Notes: generated by a model from the sequence alone, not told the origin. A stretch of 64,000 bases of DNA from Candidatus Shapirobacteria bacterium (GCA_020059745.1 JAGVBK010000004.1:100797-164796), one strand, 5' to 3'; positions 1 to 21,406 are shown, numbered from the stretch's first letter. Translations and numbers: made by a program.

Positions 1-7
1 ATATCTC

Positions 8-205
8 ATGCGCCACAAAAACCAAGCTGTCACAAAGGAACAGATCATCAACCATGTATGGGATTACGATGCTGATGTTCTCCCTAATTCAGTTGAAGTT
101 TATATAAAACATTTACGCACGAAGATTGATGATCCATATCCCAATAAACCCTTAATTTATACAATTAAAGGGTTTGGTGGATACAAAATATCGGAAGAAC
201 CGTAA
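8..205 (+). CDS. Response regulator, C-terminal OmpR/PhoB-type winged-helix fragment (N-terminus lies outside the window)
   Basis: VWDYDADV...VEVYIKHLRTKID...IYTIKGFGY matches the OmpR-family DNA-binding domain; the ORF starts at the window edge. Confidence 0.6.
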   Translation: MRHKNQAVTKEQIINHVWDYDADVLPNSVEVYIKHLRTKIDDPYPNKPLIYTIKGFGGYKISEEP

Positions 206-208
206 ACC

Positions 209-1258
209 ATGACTACATTTCATTTCGCCAGATTAAAACTGACAGCCTGGTATCTTATTATAATAATGGCACTTAGCGTGCTGTTTAGCCTTGTAATATA
301 CCGAGTGCTTACGGCTGAAATCGATCGTTTTGAGAGAGCACAGCGATTTTTCATCGAAAGAAGGCTTCAGGAAGGAACTTTGCCACTTCCTCCAGGAAGA
401 AGGCTGTTTTTATTTGGTAATGGAGAACCTCCAAATCCGCAGCTTTTAACAGAAACCAAACAACGAATCTTAACTATGATTATCCTTGCGAATACAGGTA
501 TCTTAGTAATAACAGGAGGGCTTGGCTATTTTCTTGCGGGAAGAACGCTCAAACCTATCAAAGAAATGATGGATGAACAGAACAGATTTATAACCGATGC
601 TTCTCATGAGTTAAAAACCCCGCTTACTTCCCTACGCAGCGAATTTGAAGTAGCAATGCTTAACGATGCGAAAATGACTCTGAAGGAAGCAAAACAGCTT
701 ATCAAAAGCGGCTTTGAAGAAATTGTTGAATTACAAGGTCTTGCTGAAAACTTGATTGAGTTAACACAACAAAGTAAAAAACGAGGACTTATCAAAAGAG
801 AGGAAGTTTCACTTCTTGAAATAGCCGAGGCGGCTTTGAAAAAGGTTGTTCCTCTTGCCAAGCAAAAACACATCACTATAAACAACGATATTGATGATTA
901 TATCCTTGAAGGAGAAAACCAAAGCCTGACAGAGTTGTTTGTAATTCTCTTGGATAATGCAATCAAATATAGTCCCCAGCATTCAAAGATTTCACTTTCC
1001 TCAAAGAAAACCGATCATCATATTCGAATTGAGATAACAGATACTGGAATGGGCATTGATGAAAAAGACCTTCCCCATATCTTCGACAGGTTTTACAGAG
1101 CTGATAAATCCCGTTCAAAAACAACTGGATATGGGCTAGGGTTATCAATTGCTAAGCAAATAGTTGAGACTCATAATGGATCGATTTCTGCAGAAAGCAA
1201 ACCTAACAAGGGATCAAAATTTGTTATAAAGCTACCTCTAACCATATCTCACACATAA
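209..1258 (+). CDS. Sensor histidine kinase
   Basis: N-terminal TM segment, HisKA H-box SHELKTPLTSL, HATPase_c motifs (DNAIKYS, GYGLGLSIAK). It lies immediately downstream of the response regulator. Confidence 0.8.
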   Translation: MTTFHFARLKLTAWYLIIIMALSVLFSLVIYRVLTAEIDRFERAQRFFIERRLQEGTLPLPPGRRLFLFGNGEPPNPQLLTETKQRILTMIILANTGILVITGGLGYFLAGRTLKPIKEMMDEQNRFITDASHELKTPLTSLRSEFEVAMLNDAKMTLKEAKQLIKSGFEEIVELQGLAENLIELTQQSKKRGLIKREEVSLLEIAEAALKKVVPLAKQKHITINNDIDDYILEGENQSLTELFVILLDNAIKYSPQHSKISLSSKKTDHHIRIEITDTGMGIDEKDLPHIFDRFYRADKSRSKTTGYGLGLSIAKQIVETHNGSISAESKPNKGSKFVIKLPLTISHT

Positions 1259-1304
1259 GATTTTTAAGCCACTTTTAAGTTCTGCCATTTAGAATTTTTT
1301 ATAT

Positions 1305-2612
1305 ATGTCTTTATTAAAAGCATTTTTGGCAAAACTCAAAGGCTTTAAGAATTGGTTTGTAAAAGCTTCTCTGATCAAGAAACTGATTATTGTCACCATC
1401 GTTATCGGTATTGGCTGGTTTTCCATAACCCGAATTTTAAGCACGCGAAGCCAACAACCTCAGTACCAAACAGCTCAAGCAGAAAAAGGCACACTTATTA
1501 CCTCTGTTTCTGCTTCAGGAACGATTTCTCAAGGAAGTCAGGTAAGTATTACTACCCAAGCCACGGGAATAGTAAAAGAAGTTTATGTTTCCGACGGAGA
1601 TACAGTTACAGCAGGTCAGAAAATTGCCGAAATTACTCTCGACACCGCCTCGAAACAAAAACAAGCTGCCGCCTGGGCAAGTTATTTATCAGCTAAAAAC
1701 AGTTTAGAATCCGCTAAAACTAGCATCTACACCCTACAGTCTGCTCTGTTCGCAGCCAATCAGAAATTTATTAATGATGCTGTTGCCAGAGAACTACCTG
1801 CCGACGATCCAACTTACATTCAACAGAATGCCGATTGGTTAGCAGCAGAAGCAAAATACAAAAACCAGCAATCTGTAATAGAACAATCTCAGGCATCACT
1901 GAATAGTGCCTGGTTGTCATACACCCAAACTTCCTCAACCATCACCGCGCCAATGGCGGGGACTGTCACAGGCCTAACCCTTACAACTGGTTCATCGGTT
2001 GGTAGTCAAACATCATCCTCAACTTCGAATGGCACAGGAAGTTCCAATCAAAATGTCGGAACTATCCATGCAATTCAAAATATGTTGCAAGCAACAGTAA
2101 ATCTAACAGAAATTGATGTTGTAAAAGTTAAGCCTGGGCAAAAAGTAACGCTCACCCTAGACGCATTTCCAGACAAGACTTTTACTGGCAAGGTGGCAAC
2201 AGTCAACACGAACGGCTCTGTCAGTTCAGGAGTCACGACATATCCAACAACCATAACCTTTGATTCAGCATTAGATAGCATATATCCTAATATGGCTGTA
2301 AATGCGACCATCATTACCAACATTAAAGACAATGCCATTCTAGTGCCTTCAGGGGCAATTCAGACAGTTAATAATCAGTCTATTGTTCGAGTAATGAAAA
2401 ATGATCAGGTAATCTCAGTTCCTGTTGAAATTGGAGACTCGAATGATACACAAACGGAGATCGTTTCAGGAATCGACGAGGGAGACACGGTGATTACGGG
2501 GGGCACTACAACCCAAAATAATACCACCCCACAAGGAACTACCTCTCCGTTTGGGGGAAGTTTTGGAAGTAGAGGCGCGGGGGGAGGGCAAATTTTCATT
2601 CAAAGAAGATAA
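1305..2612 (+). CDS. HlyD/MacA-like periplasmic adaptor subunit
   Basis: N-terminal TM anchor, a biotin-lipoyl-like VSDGDTVTAGQKIAEI, coiled-coil and beta-barrel regions. It directly precedes the ABC ATPase and FtsX-type permease. Confidence 0.6.
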   Translation: MSLLKAFLAKLKGFKNWFVKASLIKKLIIVTIVIGIGWFSITRILSTRSQQPQYQTAQAEKGTLITSVSASGTISQGSQVSITTQATGIVKEVYVSDGDTVTAGQKIAEITLDTASKQKQAAAWASYLSAKNSLESAKTSIYTLQSALFAANQKFINDAVARELPADDPTYIQQNADWLAAEAKYKNQQSVIEQSQASLNSAWLSYTQTSSTITAPMAGTVTGLTLTTGSSVGSQTSSSTSNGTGSSNQNVGTIHAIQNMLQATVNLTEIDVVKVKPGQKVTLTLDAFPDKTFTGKVATVNTNGSVSSGVTTYPTTITFDSALDSIYPNMAVNATIITNIKDNAILVPSGAIQTVNNQSIVRVMKNDQVISVPVEIGDSNDTQTEIVSGIDEGDTVITGGTTTQNNTTPQGTTSPFGGSFGSRGAGGGQIFIQRR

Positions 2613-2631
2613 TATTTTCTAATAAAATGCT

Positions 2632-3357
2632 ATGCCAACAATTATTAGGGCAAGAAATCTATCAAAAGTCTATAAAACGGAAACGGTTGAAACAGTTGCG
2701 CTTAACAATGTTTCTTTTGATATAGAAAAGGGCGAATTTGTGGCTATCATGGGACCATCAGGAAGCGGCAAGTCCACTCTTATGCACATTCTGGGGGCAC
2801 TGGATACTCCAACAAATGGTGAATATATTTTGGACGGAGAAAATGTCAGCAAACTTCAAGATGACGAATTGGCTGAAATCCGAAATAGGAAAATAGGTTT
2901 TGTCTTTCAGGCTTTTAATCTACTTCCCCGAAGAACAGCTTTGCAAAATGTGATGTTGCCTATGACCTACGCAGCTATCTCAAAAGAGCAGCGTCTGGAA
3001 AAAGCTAAAAAGTATCTGAAAATGGTTGGTCTGGAAGATCGCATGGAACACACTTCAAATCAGCTTTCAGGCGGCCAGCAACAAAGAGTGGCAATCGCAC
3101 GCAGTCTTGCTATGAACCCCGCGATCTTACTTGCCGATGAACCAACAGGAAATATCGCCAGTATTCAAGCCGAAGAAATAATGGCCATATTCCAAAATCT
3201 TAATAAAAAAGGACATACCATAGTCATGATTACCCACGAACCTGATATTGCCGAACATGCAAAAAGGATTATTCACATAAAAGACGGCAAGATTGTCAAT
3301 GATGGTAATGGACACAAGCAAAGGAAGGTAAATGGAATACACAGAGATAATAACTGA
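2632..3357 (+). CDS. ABC transporter ATP-binding protein (MacB/LolD-like)
   Basis: Walker A GPSGSGKST, ABC signature LSGGQQQRVAIARSL, Walker B ILLADEPTGN. Confidence 0.9.
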   Translation: MPTIIRARNLSKVYKTETVETVALNNVSFDIEKGEFVAIMGPSGSGKSTLMHILGALDTPTNGEYILDGENVSKLQDDELAEIRNRKIGFVFQAFNLLPRRTALQNVMLPMTYAAISKEQRLEKAKKYLKMVGLEDRMEHTSNQLSGGQQQRVAIARSLAMNPAILLADEPTGNIASIQAEEIMAIFQNLNKKGHTIVMITHEPDIAEHAKRIIHIKDGKIVNDGNGHKQRKVNGIHRDNN

Positions 3358-4555
3358 AGCCATAGGCACCCTCACTGTCAATAAACTAAGAACGGGGCTT
3401 GCTACTCTTGGAATCGTCATCGGTATAGGCAGCGTTATTGCTCTCGTTTCACTCGGCCAAGCGAGCCAAAAGTCGGTCGAGTCACAAATTCAGTCTCTCG
3501 GATCAAATTTGTTAACTGTGTCTCCAGGTGCTGTTAGCCAGGGAGGTGTTCGAGGAGCAACAGGAGGTGGCACCACCCTCACCTTGGAAGATGCTAAAGC
3601 CATTAGCTCTACTTCTCAAATAACCACGATTCAGGCAGTTTCTCCTGAATACCAAAGCAGAGGCCAAGTTACAACAGGTAGAACCAACACTAATACACAA
3701 ATACTAGGCGTAACACCCGTCTACGCCGATATTAGAAAAGTAACAATGGCCCAGGGTAGTTTTATCAGCGAGCAACAAGTTAGCGGTATGGCCAAGGTAG
3801 CTGTAATTGGCCCAACTGTTGTTACCGATCTTTTTGGCGAAGGAGCAAGTCCAGTTGGACAAACTGTGAGGATAAACGGCCAAACATTAACCATTATCGG
3901 AATAACAGAAGCAAAAGGTGGTTCAGGATTTCAAAATCAGGATGATATTGTTTTTGTTCCCCTCTCAACAGCCCAAAAACAACTCTTTGGTGCAGATCAC
4001 TTAACCTCAATCGTCCTTGAGGCAAAATCTGCAGATGTTATGGTAAATGCACAAAATGAGGTAGGCTATTTTCTTTTGGCAAGACATAAGTTAAACGATC
4101 CAGCAAAAGCGGATTTCTCAATAATGAATCAGCAGGACATTTTAAATACTGTAAACCAGGTAACAGGCACCTTTACAACTCTTTTGACTGGAGTTGCCGC
4201 CATTTCTCTTTTGGTTGGAGGCATTGGCATTATGAACATAATGCTTGTTACTGTTACAGAACGAACCAGAGAAATAGGGCTTCGAAAAGCCCTTGGTGCA
4301 AAAAAGAAAGTTATTATCACTCAGTTTTTAATGGAATCTATTATTCTTACGTTCGCTGGAGGGTTAATCGGAATAGGGATTGGAATTTTGGCTTCATTTA
4401 TCATTACCAAACTTAGCAATTCTCCATTTGTTGTGTCTCCGAGCTCAATTCTCTTAGCATTTGTAGTATCCGCAGGGATAGGTATATTGTTTGGCTGGTA
4501 TCCAGCCCAAAAAGCAGCAAATCTACAGCCAATTGAAGCTCTGCGATATGAGTAA
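3332..4555 (+). CDS. ABC transporter permease, FtsX/MacB family
   Basis: N-terminal TM segment, a large periplasmic domain, then a C-terminal three-helix FtsX-like bundle. It overlaps the ATPase gene. Confidence 0.8.
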   Translation: MEYTEIITEAIGTLTVNKLRTGLATLGIVIGIGSVIALVSLGQASQKSVESQIQSLGSNLLTVSPGAVSQGGVRGATGGGTTLTLEDAKAISSTSQITTIQAVSPEYQSRGQVTTGRTNTNTQILGVTPVYADIRKVTMAQGSFISEQQVSGMAKVAVIGPTVVTDLFGEGASPVGQTVRINGQTLTIIGITEAKGGSGFQNQDDIVFVPLSTAQKQLFGADHLTSIVLEAKSADVMVNAQNEVGYFLLARHKLNDPAKADFSIMNQQDILNTVNQVTGTFTTLLTGVAAISLLVGGIGIMNIMLVTVTERTREIGLRKALGAKKKVIITQFLMESIILTFAGGLIGIGIGILASFIITKLSNSPFVVSPSSILLAFVVSAGIGILFGWYPAQKAANLQPIEALRYE

Positions 4556-4582: not shown

Positions 4583-4996
4583 ATGCAAAAAAATAGTATT
4601 GTCGTCACAATAATCGTTGCGTTAATAGTTGGTGTCGCTGCCTTTTATGGTGGAATGCAGTATCAACAACGCCAAAAAGCCAGTTTTGGTGGTAGGCAAT
4701 TCACGACTGGTGTCCCAAACGGGCAATTCCAGGCCAGGGGCAACCTCCAGGGAATACGCCCCATCAATGGCGAGATCATCAGCCAAGATGAAAATAGCAT
4801 TACCGTCAAAATGCAGGACGGCAGTTCCAAGATCGTAATCCTGTCTGATCAAACCGCAATCAACAAGGCATCTACAGGATCAAAGGACGACTTAAAGACA
4901 GGTGAGCAGGTAGCGGCTTTTGGGACTGAAAACTCAGACGGAAGCATAACTGCTCAGAATATTTCGATTGGAGAAACTTTTAGGGTTAGACAATAA
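4583..4996 (+). CDS. Hypothetical small membrane-anchored protein
   Basis: ORF with an RBS-like aggagg upstream and one N-terminal TM helix. No recognisable motif. Confidence 0.4.
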   Translation: MQKNSIVVTIIVALIVGVAAFYGGMQYQQRQKASFGGRQFTTGVPNGQFQARGNLQGIRPINGEIISQDENSITVKMQDGSSKIVILSDQTAINKASTGSKDDLKTGEQVAAFGTENSDGSITAQNISIGETFRVRQ

Positions 4997-5033
4997 GGTT
5001 CCCAACCCTCACTAACAATGCCTCTAATCAAAT

Positions 5034-5046
5034 TGGTTATATTAAG
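5034..5046. repeat. 13-bp direct repeat TTGGTTATATTAA, copy 1 (copy 2 at 5809-5821)
   Basis: An exact 13-mer found on both sides of ORF 5255-5806. Confidence 0.5.
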
Positions 5047-5254
5047 TACTATTTGGGTTAAGAAAATTCCAGGCTAATTTCTTTTTGCTCGAGGATCGTA
5101 ACGTTAATATAAGCAAAGCTTGTTTCTCATATTCACTCAAAATAACCAGTCAATATGTGCGTATACTCAAAATATTCGAGGATATTATTTTTGTTCAGAA
5201 GCTAAAAATGGAAATGATACAAATACGAAATACATGTTTTATTTAATAAACCTA

Positions 5255-5806
5255 TTAAGTTCTCTTCATATAAAAAGACATACTCGAAACAGTAATTGCC
5301 ATCGGAGATTTGAAGGGTATTGCAACTTTATTCTCATCCTTTATATCCTGTGTCGGCTCATTAGATGTGGATATCACCTGAAAAGCTATATCACCTTCAA
5401 CTTGTTGTACTGCGCTAAAATATACTCGTTTACAACTCTTGGGTGGCAGATACCTGAGCTGTAATAACATAATGCCCTTGTTGTTAGCTTTCCCACTCAG
5501 AATAAATGCTCCAGAATTGACTGACATATTTCCAAATGTTAATTCTGAATCATGATCTTGATCTTCGATATTGGTAATTTTCAATGGTGGAGGCGAGTTT
5601 AAGTTTGTTGGTAACCATGCCACTATTTGAGTGTCGAAAAGCGGAGTTTCTGTTTTATTGTAAACAACAAAATATCCCTCTTTATTCCACGTAGTTTTGG
5701 TTAGATGTATTTTTTTCGGTTTTACATCGATTTTTGGTTGAACAAATTTTACAATCCAACCAATAATATCTTTTGTAAAACCAAGTAATGAAAGAGTATC
5801 AACCAT
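5255..5806 (-). CDS. Hypothetical protein, 183 aa, downstream of the NTase operon
   Basis: Clean ORF with no recognised motif. Flanked by the 13-bp direct repeats. Confidence 0.4.
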   Translation of the reverse strand: MVDTLSLLGFTKDIIGWIVKFVQPKIDVKPKKIHLTKTTWNKEGYFVVYNKTETPLFDTQIVAWLPTNLNSPPPLKITNIEDQDHDSELTFGNMSVNSGAFILSGKANNKGIMLLQLRYLPPKSCKRVYFSAVQQVEGDIAFQVISTSNEPTQDIKDENKVAIPFKSPMAITVSSMSFYMKRT

Positions 5807-5808
5807 AT

Positions 5809-5858
5809 TTGGTTATATTAACTTACCTAAGCTCCGCGGGCCTAAGATTAATATAACC
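5809..5858. promoter_or_regulatory. Perfect 11-bp inverted repeat (GGTTATATTAA ... TTAATATAACC, 26-nt spacer), giving a candidate hairpin terminator after the NTase gene or an operator for ORF 5255-5806
   Basis: Left arm 5811-5821 and right arm 5848-5858 are exact reverse complements. The left arm is also copy 2 of the 13-bp direct repeat (5809-5821). Confidence 0.4.
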
Positions 5859-5950
5859 TTTGACTTCACTCCAATTATACTCGCCTTACAAGATTTGAGG
5901 TACATCGGAGAGATGAGGCAAAGGTGGGAAGAAATTAAAAAAATTAGCAC

Positions 5951-7369
5951 TCATTCATCTTTAATTCCAACATAAAACCTGCCGGTGGCGACACAAACAC
6001 CCTTATTTATGGCATAGCAATCAACCCAATGCATACCTGGGTATTGGGTGTGTTCTTCTTTAAAGTCTGAGTCTCCCTCGCAAAAGTGAAATTCGTTTCC
6101 TCTCCAACCGCCTATGCGTGCCATTTCTAATGCCGGAAGTCCATTATTAACCACTAACCACCTTATTTCATCATATACAAGTCCATTAATATCTGGTGAA
6201 AAATATAAGGAATAGTCCTTGCTAAGATATTCTCCTGAAGTCATTGACCTTGTGCCATTAAGTACCTCAAGTTGAAACTTAGAAAATGGTTTTGGAATAT
6301 TCTTGAAAGAAGGAGGATTTTTAACCTTTTCTGAGCGCTTGACCTTGCAGGAAACGTTAATTTTTGAGGGGTTAGGAGCAAAAGGCCATGGCGGATTAGC
6401 AATGAGACTCTCCCTCAAAGCAGAATATACTTCTTCTCTTTCCTCTTCTGGCATGTTCACAAATTTACTTAATGCTTTGGAGGCAAAATCCACGGCTAAT
6501 TTTCTTTGCACTCCCGTTTTGTCTTCATTCAAATAACTGTCCACAAAAATATTGCTCTCTGCCATATCTGGTATTGCTGGTTTCTCTAGCCATTGCCCCA
6601 TATTTTTAAGGAAATAACAAACTGTATCATAAAAATTAATACCTTTATTCTGGGCAAAGATATTTGTGATAACCAGCTCAAAATGAAAGGATTTCAGCTC
6701 AAACTCGGTTAATCCGGCATTACACGACTTTTTCCAAACTTTAGCAAACTTGACGGATTTTCTATAACTAGGATTTGAATTTAAATTTAAAGCTTGTTTG
6801 ATGTAGCCTTTGGGGTCAGACAAAATCCAGGGAATTTTCCCTCCACTAACGCTATATTTCTTGGCCCAATTGCCCTGGTGCATTTTCTGGATTTCTGGAA
6901 CCAAATAAATATCGTCTCCATGCCTGTTTTTTCTTCCAGATTTTAAAGCGGGAACAACATCTATGGAAAAACCCTTTTCTTTTGGAAAAGCGATGCTAAC
7001 TGAGTGTGTTTGGTCTGCGTCAATTTCTACTTCTTCTCCTATTTTACGATAACCTTCGGCCAAAATTGAAGCTAAGCTTTGTAATGGGTCTTTAACATCA
7101 AAATAGAAGGGTTCACCTTGCTTAGCGCTTGAAAAAAGCTTACTTCCGGTTACTTGAAAAGCTTCAGGTAATATCCATATTATGTCAAGGTCGTGAACGG
7201 GGGTTACTGAAGTTTCTCTAACATATGAACCGCTTTGAAAAATTTCATTCCCCAATATCTCTTGAAGGTCGCTGTAATGTTTTGAAATAACTTCTCTTTC
7301 CTCCGCCGGGGGCGATAAATACTTGCGACAAAACTCCTCTAAGGTGGTATTAACTTCGTCTTGGTTCAT
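5951..7369 (-). CDS. CD-NTase / SMODS-like nucleotidyltransferase (pol-beta superfamily) with an extra C-terminal domain
   Basis: GSYVRETSVTPVHDLD fits the GS...[DE]h[DE] pattern, with a third acidic residue in FSIDVVPAL. A helical C-lobe follows, then ~140 aa of unknown function. Confidence 0.55.
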   Translation of the reverse strand: MNQDEVNTTLEEFCRKYLSPPAEEREVISKHYSDLQEILGNEIFQSGSYVRETSVTPVHDLDIIWILPEAFQVTGSKLFSSAKQGEPFYFDVKDPLQSLASILAEGYRKIGEEVEIDADQTHSVSIAFPKEKGFSIDVVPALKSGRKNRHGDDIYLVPEIQKMHQGNWAKKYSVSGGKIPWILSDPKGYIKQALNLNSNPSYRKSVKFAKVWKKSCNAGLTEFELKSFHFELVITNIFAQNKGINFYDTVCYFLKNMGQWLEKPAIPDMAESNIFVDSYLNEDKTGVQRKLAVDFASKALSKFVNMPEEEREEVYSALRESLIANPPWPFAPNPSKINVSCKVKRSEKVKNPPSFKNIPKPFSKFQLEVLNGTRSMTSGEYLSKDYSLYFSPDINGLVYDEIRWLVVNNGLPALEMARIGGWRGNEFHFCEGDSDFKEEHTQYPGMHWVDCYAINKGVCVATGRFYVGIKDE

Positions 7370-7913
7370 ATCGGTACGAGGACATAATGGAAAAGATATC
7401 GCTCACTAAGCGAAGTGGCATGCTTGATAGAGCATACCATTTGTAATCTTTAATTATTTCTTTATGTTTATCGTCAAGTTGGTAGCCTATTTCAAAGGTA
7501 TAAATAATTAAAGGTTTATCGGCTCGCCTGACCATTTGAAAAAAATCGTCAAAGTCATTCATTCCCCTATGGTATCCCAGTATTATAATGCCAGCTTCAT
7601 CAATATCTTTCTGGTCAATAGCATGGAAATCGGTTACAACTCCTTTAGAGACATTAAAATAGCCTGAACTCTTAAGAACCCCAAGCTCCCGTTCCATGTC
7701 TTTTGTCCCGCCATCATTTCTCTTTCCTCCAGGCGGACAAAAAATAAAAACCTTTTTGCCTAAATTCTTCCCAAGTCTCCAAAAAACTTTGGCCGACCGG
7801 CTGAAAATAACAATGAACCCTACAATAGCCACGAGAAGACCACCAGCGGCTTTTAAAATATCCCAAGCATCTAAAGCAGTGGTAATTTTATTAATATCTA
7901 TATCGGTTTTCAT
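7350..7913 (-). CDS. Single-pass membrane protein with a small alpha/beta (Rossmann-like) domain, translationally coupled to the NTase
   Basis: One TM helix (LLVAIVGFIVIFS), then VFIFCPPGG...GGT...IIILGYHRG. Its stop overlaps the NTase start by 20 nt. Confidence 0.45.
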   Translation of the reverse strand: MKTDIDINKITTALDAWDILKAAGGLLVAIVGFIVIFSRSAKVFWRLGKNLGKKVFIFCPPGGKRNDGGTKDMERELGVLKSSGYFNVSKGVVTDFHAIDQKDIDEAGIIILGYHRGMNDFDDFFQMVRRADKPLIIYTFEIGYQLDDKHKEIIKDYKWYALSSMPLRLVSDIFSIMSSYRYEPRRS

Positions 7914-7973
7914 CTTTTTCTTTCAAAACAAATGCTTGACATTTACTGTAGATATACCATAAACTTATTATAA
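7914..7973. promoter_or_regulatory. Divergent promoter region between the TM-NTase operon and lexA
   Basis: TTGACA at 7936-7941. TACTGTAGATATACCA contains a CTGT half-site reminiscent of an E. coli-type SOS box, but the second half-site is not matched. Confidence 0.25.
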
Positions 7974-8567
7974 ATGCAAGATGTAAAACCGCTTACAGAG
8001 CGGCAAAAACAAGTTCTAGACTTCATAAATTCATTTTTAAGCGAGAAAGGCATTTCCCCTTCGCTCAAGGAAATTGCCAGCTTTTTAAATACAAATAATC
8101 TTAGCTCAGCTCAATATTTCATTAATGAGCTTGAAGATAAGGGGTATCTTCGGAAAAATGCCAATAAAGCAAGAGGAATCATGCCTATCCCAAAAAAATA
8201 CTCAATTCCTTTGCTCGGTTTTATTGCCGCAGGAGAACCAATTGAGCCAATTGAATCTCCGGATGAAATATCCATTCCTCCAAGCATGGAAATAGACATA
8301 AAGTATCCTCACTATGCCCTCCAAGTTAAGGGTGATAGTATGATTGATATGGGGATTTTAGATGGTGATATTGTTATTATTAAACATCAGTTAACTGCTA
8401 GTAGCGGAGAAACGGTCGTTGCCGTTACAGAGAATGGAGCAACCTTGAAAATCTTTAAAAAAGAAAACGACCAAGTATTTTTGGAACCAAGAAATAAGGA
8501 GTATCAGACAATTTATCCGCAAAGGCTAGATATTAGAGGCAAATTTGTTGGCTTAATTAGAAACTAA
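7974..8567 (+). CDS. lexA: LexA repressor (S24 peptidase)
   Basis: N-terminal winged HTH, cleavage-site region LLGFIAAGEPI, catalytic Ser in KGDSM and Lys in TLKIFKK. Confidence 0.85.
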   Translation: MQDVKPLTERQKQVLDFINSFLSEKGISPSLKEIASFLNTNNLSSAQYFINELEDKGYLRKNANKARGIMPIPKKYSIPLLGFIAAGEPIEPIESPDEISIPPSMEIDIKYPHYALQVKGDSMIDMGILDGDIVIIKHQLTASSGETVVAVTENGATLKIFKKENDQVFLEPRNKEYQTIYPQRLDIRGKFVGLIRN

Positions 8568-8569
8568 AC

Positions 8570-9496
8570 ATGTTTTTAGAAATAAACAAAGTCCATCAGG
8601 GTGATGCGAGGAAACTGCTAAAGCAGGTAGAACCAAATTCAGTATCCTTAAGTGTTTGGTCTCCACCTTATTTTGTAGGAAAGGAATACGAAAAATACTT
8701 ATCATATCAAGATTGGGTTGACCTTTTAACCTCGGTAATTTCACTTCATGAACCAATATTAAAGCCGGGTGGTTTCCTTGTAGTTAATATTGCTGATATT
8801 CTCGCCTTTCAAGATAAATCAATCCCTCGTTTTCAAGCGCTTACCCTTACTAGACAAAAGTGTTCGGTTAGTCAGAAAGATGTTCTTGAAGCCAAAAAGA
8901 AGCACCCTGACTACAACCGATATCAACTTGCAGAATTATTGAAGTGTAGTGAGCAAACAATCGATAGAAGACTAAATGGCAATAACATAAGAGGCGGTAA
9001 ATACAACAATCAAACCAGAGTCCATTTAGTCGGAGATATTATTGAAAAACCGGCATATAAAGCAGGCTTATATCTTTATGATAGAAGAATTTGGAAAAAA
9101 GACCCTTGTTGGGAAAATAGCAAGTGGCATTCTTTATCCTACCGCTCTGTTGATGAATTTGAATATTTGTACTTTCTCTGGAAGCCAGGAATAACTACTG
9201 TTGACCGCAAAAGATTAAGCAAGGAAGAATGGAAGGATTGGGGTTCAAGAGGAGTTTGGGAAATACCTTCCGTTAGGACAAATAACGACCACGAAGCGAA
9301 ATTTCCCTTAGAACTCCCCAAAAGAGCAATAAGGCTTCTTACTTCACCAGGAGATGTTGTTTTAGATTGTTTTATGGGAAGTGGAACAACTGCCATTGCA
9401 GCAATTAATGAAGGAAGAAATTTTATCGGTATTGAATTAGAACCAAAATATGTTGATTTATCAAACCGAAAGATAAAAGAGGTGCAATCTAAATAA
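8570..9496 (+). CDS. DNA methyltransferase (beta-class amino-MTase, likely N4-cytosine or N6-adenine) with an inserted HTH-like segment
   Basis: Motif IV SPPY (VWSPPYF) lies N-terminal and motif I DCFMGSGTTAIAA lies C-terminal. The start is 2 nt after the lexA stop. Confidence 0.8.
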   Translation: MFLEINKVHQGDARKLLKQVEPNSVSLSVWSPPYFVGKEYEKYLSYQDWVDLLTSVISLHEPILKPGGFLVVNIADILAFQDKSIPRFQALTLTRQKCSVSQKDVLEAKKKHPDYNRYQLAELLKCSEQTIDRRLNGNNIRGGKYNNQTRVHLVGDIIEKPAYKAGLYLYDRRIWKKDPCWENSKWHSLSYRSVDEFEYLYFLWKPGITTVDRKRLSKEEWKDWGSRGVWEIPSVRTNNDHEAKFPLELPKRAIRLLTSPGDVVLDCFMGSGTTAIAAINEGRNFIGIELEPKYVDLSNRKIKEVQSK

Positions 9497-9515
9497 AAAT
9501 TTATTTATTAGTTTT

Positions 9516-10367
9516 TTATCTAGATTTTTCTTCCCACTTATTTCCGTTTATCCGAACAATTTTTGTACATCGCCAATTTTCAATTGAGGCCAAAGGGTTT
9601 AACCTAATTCTTATCCGCTTTGTATCGTCTGCTCTACTCTTTTCATCCTTACCGCAAATAATTAAACCGGGGGTCTCAGCTAATTTGGGTCCGTCAAACA
9701 TTAGCAAACCATTGGGAACACAGGCTAATTCAAAATATTTTAAGGGTTGAAAACCTATTTTTTCAACTTCATATACCGCCTTCAAAAACATTGTTATACA
9801 AAGAAGCGGCTTGTCGTCAATTAAATAAAAGGGTGGCAGCTTCGGTTGAAAGTTATAGTTGATTTTACCATTCCCTTGATAATGCACAGGCCAAGGTGAA
9901 TTAATAATTCCGTTTTTCCAATCATCACCTCTACCTGAAACTTGATTAGGAGGAACAACCACTTCATTTGGATTATCATTTGGTCCAGTTAACTTAATAT
10001 CTAAATGAACCAATGTCTCTTTATTGGTAAAACGGATATCTCCGCCTGTTGGCAAACCAGGAAACCTAACTTCTGAAAAAGCTTTAATAATTTTTGAAGT
10101 AAGATTATAACTAATTGTTTTCTCTCCTAACTCTAGCCAGGGAACAGAATTCCCTGTTGGTTGTCTTCCTCTCTGCTCTGGAGGATAGTTTGACCAAAAA
10201 GGATATAGCTTCCAAGCGTATTCCGTAAAATCTAAATAGAGGTCGTCGGCAATATCAAGAACTATGCCCTTGATTTTAAGGCAATGCTCTTTTTCTACTT
10301 TCCGAACGGTTTCAAGGTTGTTAACGAAATAATCTCTAACCTTAAAATAACTTTTCGCGTCAGTCAT
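9516..10367 (-). CDS. Hypothetical protein, a candidate restriction endonuclease partner
   Basis: Lies 19 bp from the MTase stop and is convergent with it, a common Type II R-M arrangement. No firm PD-(D/E)xK motif. Confidence 0.3.
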   Translation of the reverse strand: MTDAKSYFKVRDYFVNNLETVRKVEKEHCLKIKGIVLDIADDLYLDFTEYAWKLYPFWSNYPPEQRGRQPTGNSVPWLELGEKTISYNLTSKIIKAFSEVRFPGLPTGGDIRFTNKETLVHLDIKLTGPNDNPNEVVVPPNQVSGRGDDWKNGIINSPWPVHYQGNGKINYNFQPKLPPFYLIDDKPLLCITMFLKAVYEVEKIGFQPLKYFELACVPNGLLMFDGPKLAETPGLIICGKDEKSRADDTKRIRIRLNPLASIENWRCTKIVRINGNKWEEKSR

Positions 10368-10469
10368 AGTCTATGTTTGGGAGAAATCTATCAACGACAG
10401 CTTACCATAAAAGCATTTGAAATGAAATAATCACCCTATTTTTTTTCTTAAGAGACTAGCGATGGAGGT

Positions 10470-10694
10470 GTGGCTAATAATGGCCAAACAAAGAGGTTAC
10501 CAGTAACTTTGTATGGCTATCAGTTCTACGAAGAAAATGACATTGCTCAGGGCACACTTTACTTTGGTGACTGGAGCTACTATGTGATTGGAGACAGACA
10601 GACCATTTCGGTCAGGACAACGACTGAAGGAGGCGACGCTTGGAGGAGAAACGCTATGGAGAGTAATAAAGATACTCTATTTCGTAGAAATTAG
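10470..10694 (+). CDS. Hypothetical small protein
   Basis: ORF only. Confidence 0.3.
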   Translation: MANNGQTKRLPVTLYGYQFYEENDIAQGTLYFGDWSYYVIGDRQTISVRTTTEGGDAWRRNAMESNKDTLFRRN

Positions 10695-10746
10695 TAGAAA
10701 ATACTAGAAAACTTGACATCGCAATTTTTACCATTAATATGGAGGT

Positions 10747-11670
10747 ATGACCACCATATGTGAGGGCTGTACCATTGAATTTGCACCAAAGAGGAATGGC
10801 CAAAAATATCATAGTAGAGACTGTTTTCTGAAAGCCACACTAAAACTTCTTGTTTGTCCCCATTGTGGCCAAAAGTTTCAAAAAAAATTCTCTGGCCAAA
10901 TTTGCTGCTCCCGGAAGTGTTCCTATAAATTTAGGGCAAAGAAGGTTAGCAGGGGCAGTATTGTTTATTGCTCTCTTCCTTCCTGCAGTAAGGCAATATA
11001 CAGGATGCCGTCTAGAATTAAAAAGTATAATTTTTGCTGCTCAGAACATAGGGCTCTCTACCAAAAATCTCCTGAAAATAAGGACTTCGGCAAAGGGTGG
11101 AAACATACTGCCGAAGAAATCGCGAAAATTAGGCAAGCTAACTTAAACAGGGATTATAGTCAGACATTTACGGAGGAAGAAAGAGCTAAGGCTGCTAAAA
11201 GGGCGAGGAACAAGGTATGGACTCCTGAAGCTAGGAAAAATGCCAGCTTATCTCATTTGGGTAAGAAACTCCCAGAAGAGCAAAAACGAAAAATAAGGGA
11301 GAATTCTCCCAAAGGCGAGGAAAATAAACAATGGAAAGATGACGATGCGAGCTATGCGGCAAAGCATAGTTGGGCCAAAAGGCACATGGAAAAACCAAAG
11401 GTTTGTGCCTTCTCCCAAACCGAGGGGCATCTCTGTAAAGGAAGGTTGGAACTAGCCAACAAAAATCACCAGTATGAAAGAAATATTGACGATTGGGCTT
11501 GGATGTGCCGGTACCATCACGATAAATTTGATGTCGAAAACGGCTTGCGCCGCCTGACCCCCAAAACGGTGAAAATTTACGGGAAGTTTATTAACCCGAA
11601 AGTAAAAAATTTAAGCATAAGTGGCATAGTAGATAACCCAACAATTAGTCCTAATTTGAACTATCAATAA
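10747..11670 (+). CDS. HNH endonuclease with NUMOD3-like repeats and a Cys-rich N-terminus (homing-endonuclease-like)
   Basis: N-terminal CxxC clusters. Repeats GWKHTAEEIAKIRQAN and VWTPEARKNASLSHLGKKLPEEQKRKIREN resemble NUMOD3. The C-terminus HLCKG...NHQYERNIDD...CRYHHDKFD is HNH-like. Confidence 0.6.
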   Translation: MTTICEGCTIEFAPKRNGQKYHSRDCFLKATLKLLVCPHCGQKFQKKFSGQICCSRKCSYKFRAKKVSRGSIVYCSLPSCSKAIYRMPSRIKKYNFCCSEHRALYQKSPENKDFGKGWKHTAEEIAKIRQANLNRDYSQTFTEEERAKAAKRARNKVWTPEARKNASLSHLGKKLPEEQKRKIRENSPKGEENKQWKDDDASYAAKHSWAKRHMEKPKVCAFSQTEGHLCKGRLELANKNHQYERNIDDWAWMCRYHHDKFDVENGLRRLTPKTVKIYGKFINPKVKNLSISGIVDNPTISPNLNYQ

Positions 11671-11729
11671 ACTTATCAGAAGGCTACCTCTGGTAGACGA
11701 TAAGAGATAGTTCAAGGGTTGTTTCCCCT

Positions 11730-11948
11730 TTGGAAACGTTAGAGAACCCAGTAAGAGGCGTTTTAAATGCCTTTACTGGGTTCTTTTGGAAAAATATGAA
11801 AGACAAAAATAGCGAAGTTAAAAACGTTGATGAAATAGCAGAACATTGGGCGAGGCTAATTTTGTCGCATATTGAAATTAAAAAAAGAAAAGAAAAATCT
11901 ATGTTAGCAAATAAAAAAGGTCGATTTATGGCGCCAAATAATATATAA
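11730..11948 (+). CDS. Hypothetical small protein upstream of the recombinase (possible directionality factor)
   Basis: ORF only. Confidence 0.3.
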   Translation: METLENPVRGVLNAFTGFFWKNMKDKNSEVKNVDEIAEHWARLILSHIEIKKRKEKSMLANKKGRFMAPNNI

Positions 11949-11971
11949 TTAATTAACTATAGGACAAATTT

Positions 11972-13498
11972 ATGAAGACTTGCTACGCCTACATTAGGGT
12001 TTCTACTGATGAGCAAAAGAATAAAGGTTATTCTCCAGATAATCAAATTAGGCAGGTTAGAGATTATACTGAACTACACGAATATCGCATCAAGAAGATA
12101 TTTGATGATAGTGGAAGAAGCGGGCGGTCAACGGAGCATCGGTATGAACTTCAGAGTTTATTAAGTGCAGTCGACTCTAACCCGGTAGATGCCGTCATAA
12201 TATATAAAATTGACCGCTTTGCCAGAAATGTCGGAGATTTTGACAGGATTTATAAAAATTTTAAGACAAAAGGTATTAAACTTATTTCTGTTACTGAAGG
12301 CGATTTAACAGAGGGAAATAGTTTAATTCCCAATATTTTTGCTTCTGTAGCCCAATGGGAGTCAGAAGCAAATAGTTTGAGAACAAAAGATGCTTTGGCT
12401 CAAAAATTTGAAGAAGGCTGGCAACCAACCCCTCCCCCTATTGGCTACCGAACAGTTGGTGGGGAAAGGGAAAAAAAGACTTGTGAGCCTGACACTTATA
12501 CTGCGCCGATAATAAAAGAGCTTTTTAAAATGTATTCCACTGGAAATTATTCAATTCTTGCTTTGCAGGATTGGCTAAGTCAAAAGAACATTGTTTCTAA
12601 AAATGGAACCGGATTGGGACATAGTGTTATTTGCAATATCCTTAATAATCCTTTTTATTATGGACTAATTCGCTGGCATGGGGAGTCAAAAATCGGCAAG
12701 CACAAACCAATAATAGATAAATCGCTTTACGAGACGTGCCAGTATATTTTAGCTAAACATCGTAGTTTCCTAATTAGGAAGCGGGTACATGATTACTTAT
12801 TGAGAGGTTTCATCTTTTGTCATTATTGTGGCCAAAGGTATACTGCCGAACCTCATCCCAACCATTCAGTTAATAAACCTGGGGTAATCCATTACTATCA
12901 TTGCCCTAAAAGAGAACGAAATGGTTGCCCTTCAAAATACATTGAGGCAGATACTCTTGAGAAACAGATAGAAGAAGAGTTTAAAAAGCTCCAATTTAGC
13001 GAAGAATTCATTGAAGCAGTGATAAGGAAGGCCAAAGAAATCATCGCCCAAAACAGAAGAGAAAAGTCATCAGTAATGCGAGGTATTATTAATCAAAAAA
13101 ATGCTTTGGAAAATAAAAGGAATACCCTTGAAGATGCATTGTTAGATGGCACTATTGATAGAGAAACCTTTAAACGCCGCCATAATGCTTTGCAACAGCA
13201 ATTAATTAACTTAGATAACCAAATAACAGAATTTGACAACCAGGGGAAAATCGATATTGACTTAATTGAGGAAGTGCTTGCTTTTACGAGGGACATTTAT
13301 CAAACATATATTGAAGCCCCCGATTACCTTAAAAGGCATTATCTAAGGTTTTTCTTTGAGAAAGTTATAGTGAAGGATAAGAAAATATATAAAGTAATCC
13401 CGACTCCTATATTCAAAATATTGAAAAATAGGCACGAAATTATAATAAGAAAGAATTGGCTCCCCCGCGTGGATTCGAACCACGAACCTACCGCTTAA
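11972..13498 (+). CDS. Large serine recombinase (integrase)
   Basis: N-terminal resolvase catalytic motif YAYIRVSTDEQ, a recombinase domain, a zinc ribbon CHYCGQ...HCPKRERNGC and a C-terminal coiled coil. The ORF's 3' end reads into tRNA-Asn. Confidence 0.85.
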   Translation: MKTCYAYIRVSTDEQKNKGYSPDNQIRQVRDYTELHEYRIKKIFDDSGRSGRSTEHRYELQSLLSAVDSNPVDAVIIYKIDRFARNVGDFDRIYKNFKTKGIKLISVTEGDLTEGNSLIPNIFASVAQWESEANSLRTKDALAQKFEEGWQPTPPPIGYRTVGGEREKKTCEPDTYTAPIIKELFKMYSTGNYSILALQDWLSQKNIVSKNGTGLGHSVICNILNNPFYYGLIRWHGESKIGKHKPIIDKSLYETCQYILAKHRSFLIRKRVHDYLLRGFIFCHYCGQRYTAEPHPNHSVNKPGVIHYYHCPKRERNGCPSKYIEADTLEKQIEEEFKKLQFSEEFIEAVIRKAKEIIAQNRREKSSVMRGIINQKNALENKRNTLEDALLDGTIDRETFKRRHNALQQQLINLDNQITEFDNQGKIDIDLIEEVLAFTRDIYQTYIEAPDYLKRHYLRFFFEKVIVKDKKIYKVIPTPIFKILKNRHEIIIRKNWLPRVDSNHEPTA

Positions 13499-13531
13499 CA
13501 GGCGGACGCTCTACCGTTGAGCTACAGGGGA
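13457..13531 (-). tRNA. tRNA-Asn(GTT)
   Basis: Reverse-complement cloverleaf: acceptor TCCCCTG, D-arm AGCTCAACGGTAGAGC, anticodon loop CTGTTAA, T-arm GGTTCGAATCC, encoded CCA. Confidence 0.85.
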
Positions 13532-18131: not shown

Positions 18132-18219
18132 TGGCGGAGAGAGCGGGATTCGAACCCGCGAGAGCTTTCGCCCTGCGCGCTTTCCAAGCGCGTGCACTCG
18201 ACCACTATGCGACCTCTCC
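18132..18219 (-). tRNA. tRNA-Ser(GGA)
   Basis: Reverse-complement cloverleaf: anticodon loop TTGGAAA, long variable arm, T-arm GGGTTCGAATCCC, encoded CCA. Confidence 0.8.
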
Positions 18220-18261
18220 AATAATTTAATTTTACCTTAGTTAGCTTTAAAAATCGACATT

Positions 18262-18335
18262 GCGCCTCTGGGAGGAATTGAACCTCCGACCCCCAGTTCC
18301 GGAAACTGATGCTCTATCCCCTGAGCTACAGAGGC
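18262..18335 (-). tRNA. tRNA-Arg(CCG)
   Basis: Reverse-complement: acceptor GCCTCTG, D-arm AGCTCAGGGGATAGAGC, anticodon loop TTCCGGA, T-loop TTCAATT. Confidence 0.75.
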
Positions 18336-18418
18336 AAATTACCCTAAAGCGGATTGCGTCCGCTGGGGTCACAGCAAAACATATGAAAGGCGTCGCGTAA
18401 TAATCTCGCCATATCAAG

Positions 18419-18497
18419 GCGGAAAGGGTGGGAGGGTGTGCGCTTGCTTCGCAATGCTCCGTTAATCCCGCCCTTCCTTGAAACTGCGTTTCTGCGG
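18419..18497. repeat. ~72-bp repeat unit, copy B, inserted at the 3' end of tRNA-Ser(CGA)
   Basis: GCGGAAAGGGTGGGA + core GGGTGTGCGC...CCTTCCTTGA + AACTGCGTTTCTGCGG, followed by a duplicated GCGGAAAGGGTGGGA that is the tRNA 3' end. Confidence 0.55.
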
Positions 18498-18579
18498 AAA
18501 GGGTGGGATTCGAACCCACGGTAGCTTGCGCCACACTGGTTTTCGAAACCAGCTCATTCGACCACTCTGACACCTTTCC
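18494..18579 (-). tRNA. tRNA-Ser(CGA)
   Basis: Reverse-complement: acceptor GGAAAGG, anticodon loop TTCGAAA, long variable arm, T-arm GGGTTCGAATCCC. Confidence 0.8.
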
Positions 18580-18581
18580 TG

Positions 18582-18654
18582 GTGCGCCCAGGAGGAATTG
18601 AACCCCCAACCTTTTGGACCGCAACCAAATGTTCTATCCGTTGAACTATGGGCG
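18582..18654 (-). tRNA. tRNA-Arg (anticodon read as GCG)
   Basis: Reverse-complement: acceptor GCGCCCA, D-arm GTTCAACGGATAGAAC, anticodon stem TTTGG/CCAAA with loop TTGCGGT, T-loop TTCAATT. An anticodon of GCG is unusual and should be confirmed. Confidence 0.6.
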
Positions 18655-18704
18655 CATTTAATTTGTAGCTTCTATATTATACCAGAATTCAGCCTTAAAT
18701 AGGC

Positions 18705-19271
18705 TTATTTTGAAGGCTTTTGTGAAGGTGGGCTTTTTTTCTCACTTTCAAGGGGAATTTTCTCAGAAAGCCAGGTTGAGGCATTGTCTAAAAATGTGGG
18801 TTCTGGCTCTTCCTCAAAAGCATATCTTAAAGAAATTTCCCTAATTTTTGCCTCGTCTCCCTCACCAATCATTAAGCTTAAACGAGAGGGGAAACCATAT
18901 TTAAGCTGGTAATTAACCATCTTTTGACCATATTTTTGATTTATCCAAAACTGCTCAACATTCTCCCAAGGATAAGTTTGGCCGGCATAAGCAACCCCCC
19001 GGTTTGTTAATCTATTTTCAATTTCTTCAGGAGGCACAGTAGAAAGAACATAAACTACAAAAACAAAAGCAATAATGGCGGCAATTAAAAAGAAATCTTT
19101 AACAAAGATTAAAATCAGGCTAACCAATAAAACAATAGCCAAAATCGTGCTCCAAAACTCCTTGTCTCTTTTTTTAAAAGGCCTTGTAGGCGCTTTCCAG
19201 GCGTATAAAACTTTTAGCTCTTTTGAGGGAATTACTTCTTGAATGGACTGAGAGGAATCAGACTCTGGCAT
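18705..19271 (-). CDS. Hypothetical membrane protein
   Basis: Two adjacent TM helices and a C-terminal soluble domain. No recognisable motif. Confidence 0.4.
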   Translation of the reverse strand: MPESDSSQSIQEVIPSKELKVLYAWKAPTRPFKKRDKEFWSTILAIVLLVSLILIFVKDFFLIAAIIAFVFVVYVLSTVPPEEIENRLTNRGVAYAGQTYPWENVEQFWINQKYGQKMVNYQLKYGFPSRLSLMIGEGDEAKIREISLRYAFEEEPEPTFLDNASTWLSEKIPLESEKKSPPSQKPSK

Positions 19272-19307
19272 TAAGTTAAGAATAAATCAAACAATCACCA
19301 AAATCAA

Positions 19308-19913
19308 TTATTTGTACATATAAATGGTAAAATCCTGGGGAGAATAGGTGTTTATAAGCTCCACTTTAGGAGTAACTGTCCGGCAAAACTCAGTCACTTC
19401 TTTTGAGTCATAAGCAGCAAAAAGCTCATCATCAATATGCCCTTTGGCATCAAGCATGTTAAAAGCAAGCCCAAGCTTACTTAAAGAAAACATTTTTTTA
19501 ATCATCTCAAAGTATTTTTCCTTGTGATTAGGAACCTTAAAAGACAAAGCTCCGGAAGAAAGGACATAATCAAAGCTTCCAGATTCAAAATTAAAAATAT
19601 CAAAAACCAGAAATTTAGCCTCTGGGTATTTAATTTTAGCTTTTTCTACCAGCTCCGGCACAGCATCAATACCCAGGTAATCAAAATCGCGATAACTTAG
19701 GTTAAGAAAGCGGTAAAGGTCCCCCAAGCCAGAACCAACATCTAAAATACTTTTTTTATCAAAATCCCCTACCCCGGTTAAAGCTTGGAACCTAATAAGC
19801 TGAGACTCTTCCCCTGCCCAATTTAAAGCTTTGGCGCTGTTAATGCCGTAAGTTTTTAATGATTTTATATAGTAATCCCTCAACCTGGTTTTATCTTGAT
19901 CTGAAAATTTCAT
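19308..19913 (-). CDS. Class I SAM-dependent methyltransferase
   Basis: Motif I ILDVGSGLGDL and a Rossmann-fold pattern. Confidence 0.7.
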   Translation of the reverse strand: MKFSDQDKTRLRDYYIKSLKTYGINSAKALNWAGEESQLIRFQALTGVGDFDKKSILDVGSGLGDLYRFLNLSYRDFDYLGIDAVPELVEKAKIKYPEAKFLVFDIFNFESGSFDYVLSSGALSFKVPNHKEKYFEMIKKMFSLSKLGLAFNMLDAKGHIDDELFAAYDSKEVTEFCRTVTPKVELINTYSPQDFTIYMYK

Positions 19914-19940
19914 CTTTGAAACTCTAAAAAATTTGGCAAT

Positions 19941-21393: not shown

Positions 21394-21406
21394 TTCTATA
21401 GGATAG

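Follow-up and report, generated by a model that had tools for sequence, protein, structure and literature searches.

In the cyclic-oligonucleotide-based antiphage signalling systems (CBASS) of bacteria, infection activates a cGAS/DncV-like nucleotidyltransferase (CD-NTase), whose cyclic oligonucleotide product switches on an effector and so leads to abortive infection. Type I CBASS is defined by the absence of E1/E2/JAB and of HORMA/TRIP13 genes. Here we describe a locus in a Microgenomates (Patescibacteria/Candidate Phyla Radiation, CPR) bacterium that is very probably a minimal two-gene type I CBASS anti-phage operon. It lies in a stretch of 64,000 nucleotides (nt) from Candidatus Shapirobacteria bacterium (GCA_020059745.1 JAGVBK010000004.1:100797-164796), referred to throughout as the window, and consists of a 472-amino-acid (aa) cyclase gene and a 187-aa membrane effector gene, accompanied by a divergent gene for a LexA-type repressor.

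Several described systems serve as reference points. Fusions of a CD-NTase to AGS-C, an Ig-like domain of ~18 kDa, occur in ~40% of type I CBASS operons and are a type I feature, and type I cyclases belonging to clades D, E and F have 2TM or 4TM (TM, transmembrane) effectors as their commonest partners (Richmond-Buccola et al., 10.1101/2023.05.21.541620). According to Lau et al. (10.1101/2022.04.27.489752), the effector classes that Millman et al. 2020 distinguished include '1TM'. Control of CBASS upon DNA damage has been described for CapH/CapP, a helix-turn-helix (HTH) repressor with an ImmA/IrrE-type metallopeptidase (Lau et al. 2022, 10.1101/2022.04.27.489752). Nucleotide-gated membrane effectors that depolarise or disrupt the membrane are represented by Cam1 and Csx23 in type III CRISPR and by Cap15 in CBASS (PMC11229360; PMC10808066). 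A further protein, the predicted type III CRISPR ancillary membrane effector Cam2, combines a TM segment with a receiver (REC)-like domain and has cyclic triadenylate (cA3) as its predicted activator (Hoikkala et al. 2024, PMC11229360).

Set against type I CBASS composed of a CD-NTase-AGS-C fusion and a TM effector, the locus shares the two-gene core without Cap2/Cap3 or HORMA/TRIP13, the SMODS core with its GS...DxD...D residues, the C-terminal AGS-C domain and an effector with a predicted TM helix. It differs in its CPR/Patescibacteria host, in an effector-first gene order, and in an effector that belongs to a rare single-TM class with a receiver-like domain rather than to the 2TM or 4TM classes. 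Every defining feature of type I CBASS that can be read from sequence is present.

The cyclase-effector operon

The features of the locus are listed below in the coordinates of the window, with the evidence for each in brackets.

5951..7369, minus strand: CBASS cyclase, with a CD-NTase/SMODS core (residues ~1-330) and a C-terminal AGS-C domain (PADLOC, Pfam, PDB profile)
5960..6247, minus strand: AGS-C (Ig-like) domain, residues 375-470 (Pfam PF18134 AGS_C, 4.3e-14)
7184..7231, minus strand: catalytic motifs G47-S48 (7226-7231) and D60-L61-D62 (7184-7192) (30-homolog alignment)
6959-6961, minus strand: third acidic residue D137, within FSIDVVP (30-homolog alignment)
7350..7913, minus strand: single-pass membrane effector, CBASS '1TM' class, Cam2-like (PADLOC, AlphaFold2 model)
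7800-7859, minus strand: predicted TM helix, residues ~19-38 (hydrophobic core of the N-terminal helix)
7368-7754, minus strand: cytoplasmic receiver-like alpha/beta domain, putative sensor, residues 54-182 (AlphaFold2 model)
5831..5950, minus strand: cassette's 3' flank, ending at a homology breakpoint (blastn of the window against L015, a locus in another Patescibacteria genome; pairwise alignment)
7974..8567, plus strand: LexA-type repressor, 197 aa, winged-helix DNA-binding and S24 peptidase domains, divergent, candidate cassette regulator (Pfam, NCBIfam)

An initial annotation, made from the sequence without database searches, had taken the 472-aa protein for a CD-NTase/SMODS enzyme, and PADLOC, Pfam and a profile search of the PDB concur. 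The PADLOC Cyclase model PDLC00785 matches at 3.3e-71, aligning residues 1-470 with profile positions 1-442 of 443, and all 28 of the 28 PADLOC matches of this protein are to oligonucleotide-cyclase models. In Pfam, SMODS covers residues 6-146 (1.7e-6, 28.8 bits against a cut-off of 26.5) and, like AGS_C, exceeds its gathering score. A profile of 30 homologs retrieved CD-NTases only from the PDB, among them 6p82 (1.3e-16, with 6p82 and 6p8u both at ~1e-16) and E. coli CdnC 6p80 (1.6e-11); 6p82 and 6p8u were deposited merely as 'Nucleotidyltransferase', and we take them to be P. aeruginosa CdnD. The initial annotation had staked its proposal on conservation of the GS ... DhD signature and had pointed to a third acidic residue, and both hold up: G47, S48, D60, L61, D62 and D137 are invariant among the 30 homologs. 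Because these homologs are only 28-61% identical, the catalytic motifs are not due to chance and are under selection. The C-terminal domain of ~140 aa that had been left unexplained is AGS-C, since the Pfam AGS_C match covers residues 375-470, and this domain has been described in type I CBASS.

The 187-aa protein, judged from its profile matches, is itself a CBASS effector, where the initial annotation had recognised none. PADLOC model PDLC01057 ('C3a59', trans-membrane) matches at 3e-24, aligning residues 7-183 with profile positions 2-166 of 167, and the CBASS 'Effector 1TM' model PDLC00664 matches as well; the earlier suggestion of a defence operon agrees with the profile matches of both proteins. 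An effector gene of this same family, whole or truncated, stands upstream of the cyclase in 11 of 11 distinct loci, namely the window, L015, L001, L010/L016, L017, L003, L019, L020, L011/12, L013/14 and L021. As had been stated at the outset, and as type I CBASS requires, E1/E2/JAB and HORMA/TRIP13 are absent: no significant domain of these families was found by Pfam in nine neighbour proteins, or by Pfam and PADLOC in the open reading frames (ORFs) of 4583-13498, and Cap2/Cap3 and HORMA/TRIP13 are likewise not among the genes of the related loci.

The gene layout is as first drawn. The minus strand carries ORFs at 5951-7369 (472 aa), 7350-7913 (187 aa) and 5255-5806 (183 aa), and database entries for the proteins of the locus bear the locus tags C4578_00745 to _00755. 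The effector comes first and the cyclase second, and the divergent LexA-type gene, 7974-8567 (+), lies on the other side of the effector. The last 20 nt of the effector gene are also the first 20 nt of the cyclase gene (ATGAACCAAGACGAAGTTAA, 7350-7369), so that the two are translationally coupled, as first noted, and related loci with a full-length effector have an effector-cyclase overlap of 8-23 nt.

Some observations weigh against assigning the operon to CBASS. Both NCBIfam CBASS cyclase equivalogs fall far under their cut-off (56 and 44 bits against 200); the cyclase is too divergent for these equivalogs, and we give it no CD-NTase clade. The 187-aa protein matches the CBASS 'Effector 1TM' model only weakly (1.1e-5), and the model that it matches strongly, PDLC01057, takes its name from ancillary genes of type III CRISPR.

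The cassette and its LexA-type partner

The limits of the unit are drawn by locus L015. Positions 5831-8561 of the window share 90.8% DNA identity with L015 by blastn, in a block bounded by the stop codon of lexA at one end and reaching ~120 nt beyond the cyclase at the other, and the ~5 kb flanks on each side of the L015 block show no detectable likeness to the window by the same method. Because the homology is confined to this block, three genes form a real unit: on this comparison the actual unit is a 2.7-kb cassette at 5831-8561, composed of the divergent LexA-type repressor, the effector and the cyclase, and, to judge by the alignment, it has clearly moved between genomes. At its cyclase end, the first 25 codons (5905-5831) remain of a gene that is intact, at 137 aa, in L015; the L015 protein matches them at 96% over 25 residues by tblastn, and the break is visible in the pairwise alignment. 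No gene downstream of the cyclase is conserved among the loci compared, L001 having an 87-aa gene there, L003 an SNF2 fragment, L015 the 137-aa gene and the window only the 25-codon remnant, and the genes around the cassette vary from locus to locus. At the amino-acid level, the window and L015 are 97.9% identical in the cyclase, 92.0% in the effector and 75.5% in the LexA-like protein, a steep gradient that could reflect either a faster-evolving repressor or a recombinant block.

The LexA-type gene, overlooked in the initial annotation, is the only additional partner of the pair that is conserved. Its 197-aa protein has matches to Pfam LexA_DNA_bind (3.8e-15) and Peptidase_S24 (2.1e-24), a Ser122/Lys159 dyad that is invariant, and within FIAAGEP an Ala-Gly site. 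In 8 of the 11 loci (window, L015, L001, L010/L016, L017, L003, L019 and L020), the pair has a LexA/S24 gene upstream, mostly directly adjacent and divergent. One of these, L020, is from Candidatus Termititenax, and its cyclase is just 32% identical. In two more of the 11, L011/12 and L013/14, a pair of HTH_3 and Peptidase_M78 genes occupies the regulator position. Between loci in which cyclase and effector are 51-65% identical to those of the window, the LexA-like proteins share just ~31-35% identity. Side by side with the regulators, extra genes are seen: a DUF2188 gene (75-79 aa) lies between regulator and effector at 4229-4456 in L011/L012, where the regulator is CapH/CapP-like, and at 3220-3459 in L019, where it is LexA-like, and L003 has a different, 177-aa gene in that place. 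In this CBASS subfamily, the DUF2188 and 177-aa inserts may represent accessory genes that are not obligatory.

It is established that LexA-family proteins at large are inactivated by proteolysis after a signal from DNA damage or single-stranded DNA (ssDNA), and in this respect the partner would resemble CapH/CapP by analogy. The resemblance extends to position, with a repressor gene directly upstream of a CBASS operon, and to the sister loci L011-L014 of this same cyclase/effector family, which carry HTH_3 and Peptidase_M78 in the same place. The LexA-type protein differs from CapH/CapP in being a single polypeptide with its own S24 serine peptidase and no separate M78 protein, and the two have no sequence relationship; among the neighbours scanned in the window, Pfam found neither an M78 peptidase nor an XRE HTH gene. 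The partner belongs to no described CBASS regulator family (CapW, CapH/CapP, CapK/CapS). A literature search returned no paper tying CBASS to LexA/S24 regulators, although the collection searched was limited and this is not proof of novelty. The recurrence of the LexA/S24 partner, together with its exchange for a CapH/CapP-like pair, suggests DNA-damage-inducible control.

The intergenic region holds the following predicted elements.

7914..7979, no strand: divergent promoter region, predicted (sequence inspection)
7979-7974, minus strand: predicted operon -35, TTGCAT, overlapping the lexA ATG (sequence)
7956-7951, minus strand: predicted TG-extended -10, TATATC, with a 17-nt spacer from the -35 (sequence)
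7942-7963, no strand: 22-bp imperfect palindrome, TTTACTGTA-GATA-TACCATAAA, over the operon -10, candidate operator (sequence)
7936-7965, plus strand: promoter-like TTGACA-18-TAAACT, which could serve lexA and spans the same palindrome (sequence)

The same geometry of -35, 17 nt, TGn and -10 recurs with TTGCAT/TATATC in L015, TTGTAT/TACCAT in L010 and TTGCAA/TAGCAT in L001, so that a -35 consensus of TTG(C/T)A(T/A) is shared upstream of the effector by these loci and the window. The layout would fit autoregulated, divergent promoters under the control of a repressor. Assignment of the operator to 7942-7963 is tentative, because the candidate operators differ in geometry and no LexA operator common to the loci was found: GTCTAC direct repeats and a short palindrome are shared by L001 and L010, and a different, 22-bp imperfect palindrome by the window and L015. 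No second copy of the latter palindrome, as it stands in the window, occurs within the 64 kb.

The alternative that survives best is that the LexA-like gene is no CBASS regulator, but a general SOS repressor, or a CI-like repressor of an element, co-carried on mobile DNA; we regard this as unlikely, though deserving of serious consideration. The protein passes the housekeeping lexA equivalog TIGR00498 with 158.8 bits against a cut-off of 110.95, and PHROGs groups it with phage repressors. The region of the window resembles a decayed integrated element, with a serine integrase over a tRNA-Asn gene, a capsid fragment and a restriction-modification (R-M) pair, and recombinases lie near the L001 and L017 loci and type IV secretion system genes in L003. 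Set against co-carriage is the block shared by the window and L015, which holds just lexA, effector and cyclase while the rest of the compared flanks is unrelated. The LexA/S24 gene, moreover, keeps company with the pair across most of the loci, as far as Candidatus Termititenax, an HTH and M78 pair of CapH/CapP architecture replaces it in two loci, and the predicted operon -35 overlaps the lexA start codon. Along with the equivalog score, it counts against a dedicated regulator that one locus, L021, in which the effector is truncated, has no regulator.

The effector, Cam2 and a proposed mechanism

One TM helix and a small Rossmann-like domain had been read from the 187-aa sequence at first sight, and the AlphaFold2 model agrees. 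At a pLDDT confidence score of 84.8, it confidently shows a single long helix at the N-terminus (residues 4-49), followed by an alpha/beta domain of five strands. Residues 1-18 are acidic and six Arg/Lys fall within residues 39-54, a charge distribution that by the positive-inside rule suggests a cytoplasmic location for the soluble domain. An exhaustive profile search gathered an effector family of 116 representatives at 50% clustering, nearly all of 160-190 aa, in which R46, N50, K/R53, E76, Y114, P134, Y138, Y157 and the motif (N/S)xPLRL at 164-169 are conserved. Neither Pfam nor NCBIfam has a match for the 187-aa protein, and the effector profile found no significant relative among PDB sequences (YtoQ, 0.34). 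Searches of viral and mobile sequence yielded little, with no match by tblastn of family members against plasmid and phage collections and generic alpha/beta folds only by Foldseek against viral structures.

Like Cam2, the effector has an N-terminal TM helix and a C-terminal REC-like domain that lacks the phospho-acceptor Asp; in the model, G113-Y114 appear to occupy the position of this residue, by secondary-structure correspondence with CheY rather than by structural alignment. As for Cam2 again, a homolog of the effector adjoins an operon for Cas10 with GGDD, and the best PADLOC model bears a type III ancillary name. The homolog, at locus L018, is divergent from an operon for RAMP and a Cas10 that retains its GGDD motif, close to a small repeat array. 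Comparison of the effector family of the window with the L018 protein by hhalign gave 99.3% (E 2.8e-20) over 167 columns, end to end, and sampled family members match the same PADLOC models as well as the type III CRISPR membrane-protein models Mem_02 and Mem_04. On these profile comparisons the effector family is common to CBASS and type III CRISPR, its CRISPR linkage coming from the one locus L018. NucC and TIR-SAVED likewise occur in both kinds of system. The effector described here differs from Cam2 in its partner, which is a CD-NTase and not Cas10, and its likeness to Cam2 is judged from the published description.

Cam1, Csx23 and Cap15 offer a second comparison. Like them, the effector is a small protein with an N-terminal TM segment and a cytoplasmic sensor of cyclic nucleotides, putative in the case of the 187-aa protein. 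The sensors are different: CARF in Cam1, a tetrameric domain of its own in Csx23, a beta-barrel in Cap15 and a receiver-like domain here. No sequence similarity to Cam1, Csx23 or Cap15 was detected in the PDB searches.

A membrane-disrupting role competes with the possibility that the effector, within the same CBASS cassette, kills enzymatically, as a membrane-tethered N-glycosidase resembling nucleoside deoxyribosyltransferases (NDT) or TIR domains and degrading NAD+ or nucleotides. The best Foldseek matches in the PDB are of this nature (DNPH1, a designed phosphodeoxyribosyltransferase, MilB and the SARM1 TIR domain, E 2e-4 to 4e-3), and the residues conserved in the family include the polar E76, Y114, Y138, Y157 and R168. 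We consider the enzymatic reading improbable, however, because the Foldseek TM-scores are just 0.4-0.6 at ~12% identity and the effector profile search of PDB sequences retrieved neither NDT nor TIR with a significant E-value. The stretch best conserved in the family comprises the last strand and the beginning of the C-terminal helix (Y157, N/S164, P166-L169), and E76 presumably lies in the first helix and not at the position of the catalytic Glu of NDT or TIR proteins.

Taken together, the LexA-type repressor may be a dedicated and co-mobilised CBASS regulator, a further class of DNA-damage switch that is interchangeable with CapH/CapP, and the effector may be the CBASS counterpart of Cam2, with a receiver-like domain sensing cyclic oligonucleotides in both systems; we advance this combined proposal tentatively, as one that could well prove wrong in part. 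A mechanism can be sketched for a locus built in this way. The LexA-type repressor would most likely hold the operon off from the palindrome over the operon -10, and DNA damage or accumulation of ssDNA would trigger self-cleavage of the LexA type and derepression, the role that CapH/CapP-like pairs would fill in sister loci. On infection, the 472-aa CD-NTase would make a cyclic oligonucleotide with its AGS-C domain in attendance, a domain that may modulate phage sensing (10.1101/2023.05.21.541620). The signal would be bound by the cytoplasmic receiver-like domain of the effector, which would be translated with the cyclase from one mRNA by way of the 20-nt overlap. Since the nearest solved relatives of the cyclase are clade C/D enzymes, synthases of cA3 or cAAG, and since Cam2 is predicted to respond to cA3, we would name a cyclic trinucleotide such as cA3 as the signal, if only as a weak guess. 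Ligand binding might then cause oligomerisation through the TM helix, depolarisation or permeabilisation of the membrane and abortive infection, by analogy with Cam1, Csx23 and Cap15.

The 183-aa gene, the surroundings and what the locus may mean

The initial annotation had also placed a third, 183-aa gene (5255-5806, minus strand) after a perfect 11-bp inverted repeat and had counted it with the operon. Its position and the repeat stand; its membership of the operon does not, as its homologs have unrelated contexts. As a third component the gene was rejected: it is missing from all other effector-cyclase loci, and its homologs have no cyclase nearby. These homologs (51-67% identical) are either paired in tandem, with GroEL on one side and an Nramp transporter on the other, or preceded by genes for a hydrolase and a methyltransferase. 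The family is small and was seen only in Microgenomates-like contigs (loci L006-L009). The protein has no match in Pfam or NCBIfam and a hydrophobic N-terminus, and its AlphaFold2 model is poor (pLDDT 55, all-beta).

The arms of the inverted repeat, 5811-5821 and 5848-5858 with 26 nt between them, straddle the breakpoint at ~5831, one lying in window-specific sequence just beyond it and the other within the remnant of the 137-aa gene. A role as terminator or regulatory hairpin was set aside, there being no T-run and the arms spanning a recombination breakpoint; the repeat looks like a junction feature and not a canonical terminator. A repeated CTTAGG word is found at the junction beside an arm of the repeat (window 5811-5905, minus strand).

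The initial annotation had proposed that the locus is a previously undescribed nucleotide-signalling defence system fitting no CBASS type, with a novel NTase C-terminus, a novel membrane partner and a third component. The silence of Pfam and NCBIfam on the 187-aa and 183-aa proteins, the sub-threshold NCBIfam cyclase models and an effector class without an experimentally characterised member in the literature searched could all be cited for this proposal. It is nonetheless very improbable, and at the level of classification it is refuted, because PADLOC recognises the cyclase at full length (3e-71) and has catalogued models for the effector (3e-24 and 1e-5), because AGS_C is a named Pfam domain reported in type I CBASS, and because the 183-aa gene is absent from every other locus with the pair and has its homologs in unrelated housekeeping contexts. 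We attach practically no credence to the last possibility, that the 472-aa protein is a non-signalling NTase (MNT toxin-antitoxin, aminoglycoside NTase, CCA-adding enzyme or poly(A) polymerase, as the initial annotation had allowed) and the pair no defence system at all, even though one source labels a 347-aa homolog, P0155, 'tRNA nucleotidyltransferase (CCA-adding enzyme)', since none of these families is among the Pfam, NCBIfam, PADLOC or PDB matches, which in PADLOC are oligonucleotide-cyclase models and in the PDB CD-NTases alone.

The surroundings of the type I CBASS cassette resemble a decayed integrated element or a defence island. Directly beside the cassette is a complete BglI/SfiI-family type II R-M pair, 8570-9496 (+) and 9516-10367 (-), with an N4/N6 methyltransferase (PADLOC MTase_II, 4.9e-169) and an endonuclease (Pfam Endonuc_BglI, 7.5e-82). 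Neither R-M gene adjoins the cassette in the sister genome of L015, and the R-M pair, like the 183-aa gene, is a neighbour and not a component. A 74-aa fragment of a phage major capsid protein follows at 10470-10694 (+) (Pfam Phage_capsid, 6.6e-8, profile positions 198-251 of 280), a decayed prophage remnant between the R-M pair and the integrase. Between this fragment and the integrase, at 10747-11670 (+), is a protein of 307 aa that is rich in Cys, contains several CxxC pairs and has no significant match in Pfam, NCBIfam, PADLOC or PHROGs. The integrase, at 11972-13498 (+), is a large serine recombinase with Resolvase, Recombinase and Zn-ribbon domains (PHROG integrase, 3e-103), and its 3' end overlaps a tRNA-Asn gene (13457-13531, -) by ~40 nt, which suggests an element integrated at tRNA-Asn. 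No convincing attachment-type direct repeat of tRNA-Asn was found between 4.5 and 14 kb. Further along are a cluster of six tRNA genes (four Ser and two Arg) at 18132-21501 and a tmRNA at 22793-23163. On the opposite side, positions 1-4555 (+) hold the 3' end of a response regulator, a histidine kinase and apparent genes for a MacA-like periplasmic adaptor, an ABC ATPase of the MacB kind and an ABC permease, all named from ORF translations alone.

As a CBASS operon the locus is ordinary, in that both of its genes are already recognised by hidden Markov models of defence systems, and it provides a compact example of type I CBASS in ultra-small CPR bacteria; its single more unusual trait is the LexA-type repressor gene that accompanies it. 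The linkage to LexA/S24, if it is regulatory, would be a simple, one-protein route by which CBASS expression is coupled to DNA damage. In the literature searched, we found no later experimental paper on Cam2 and no experimental work on the class of TM and receiver-like effectors; sensing of cyclic oligonucleotides by a receiver fold would, if true, put a ubiquitous signalling domain to a new use.

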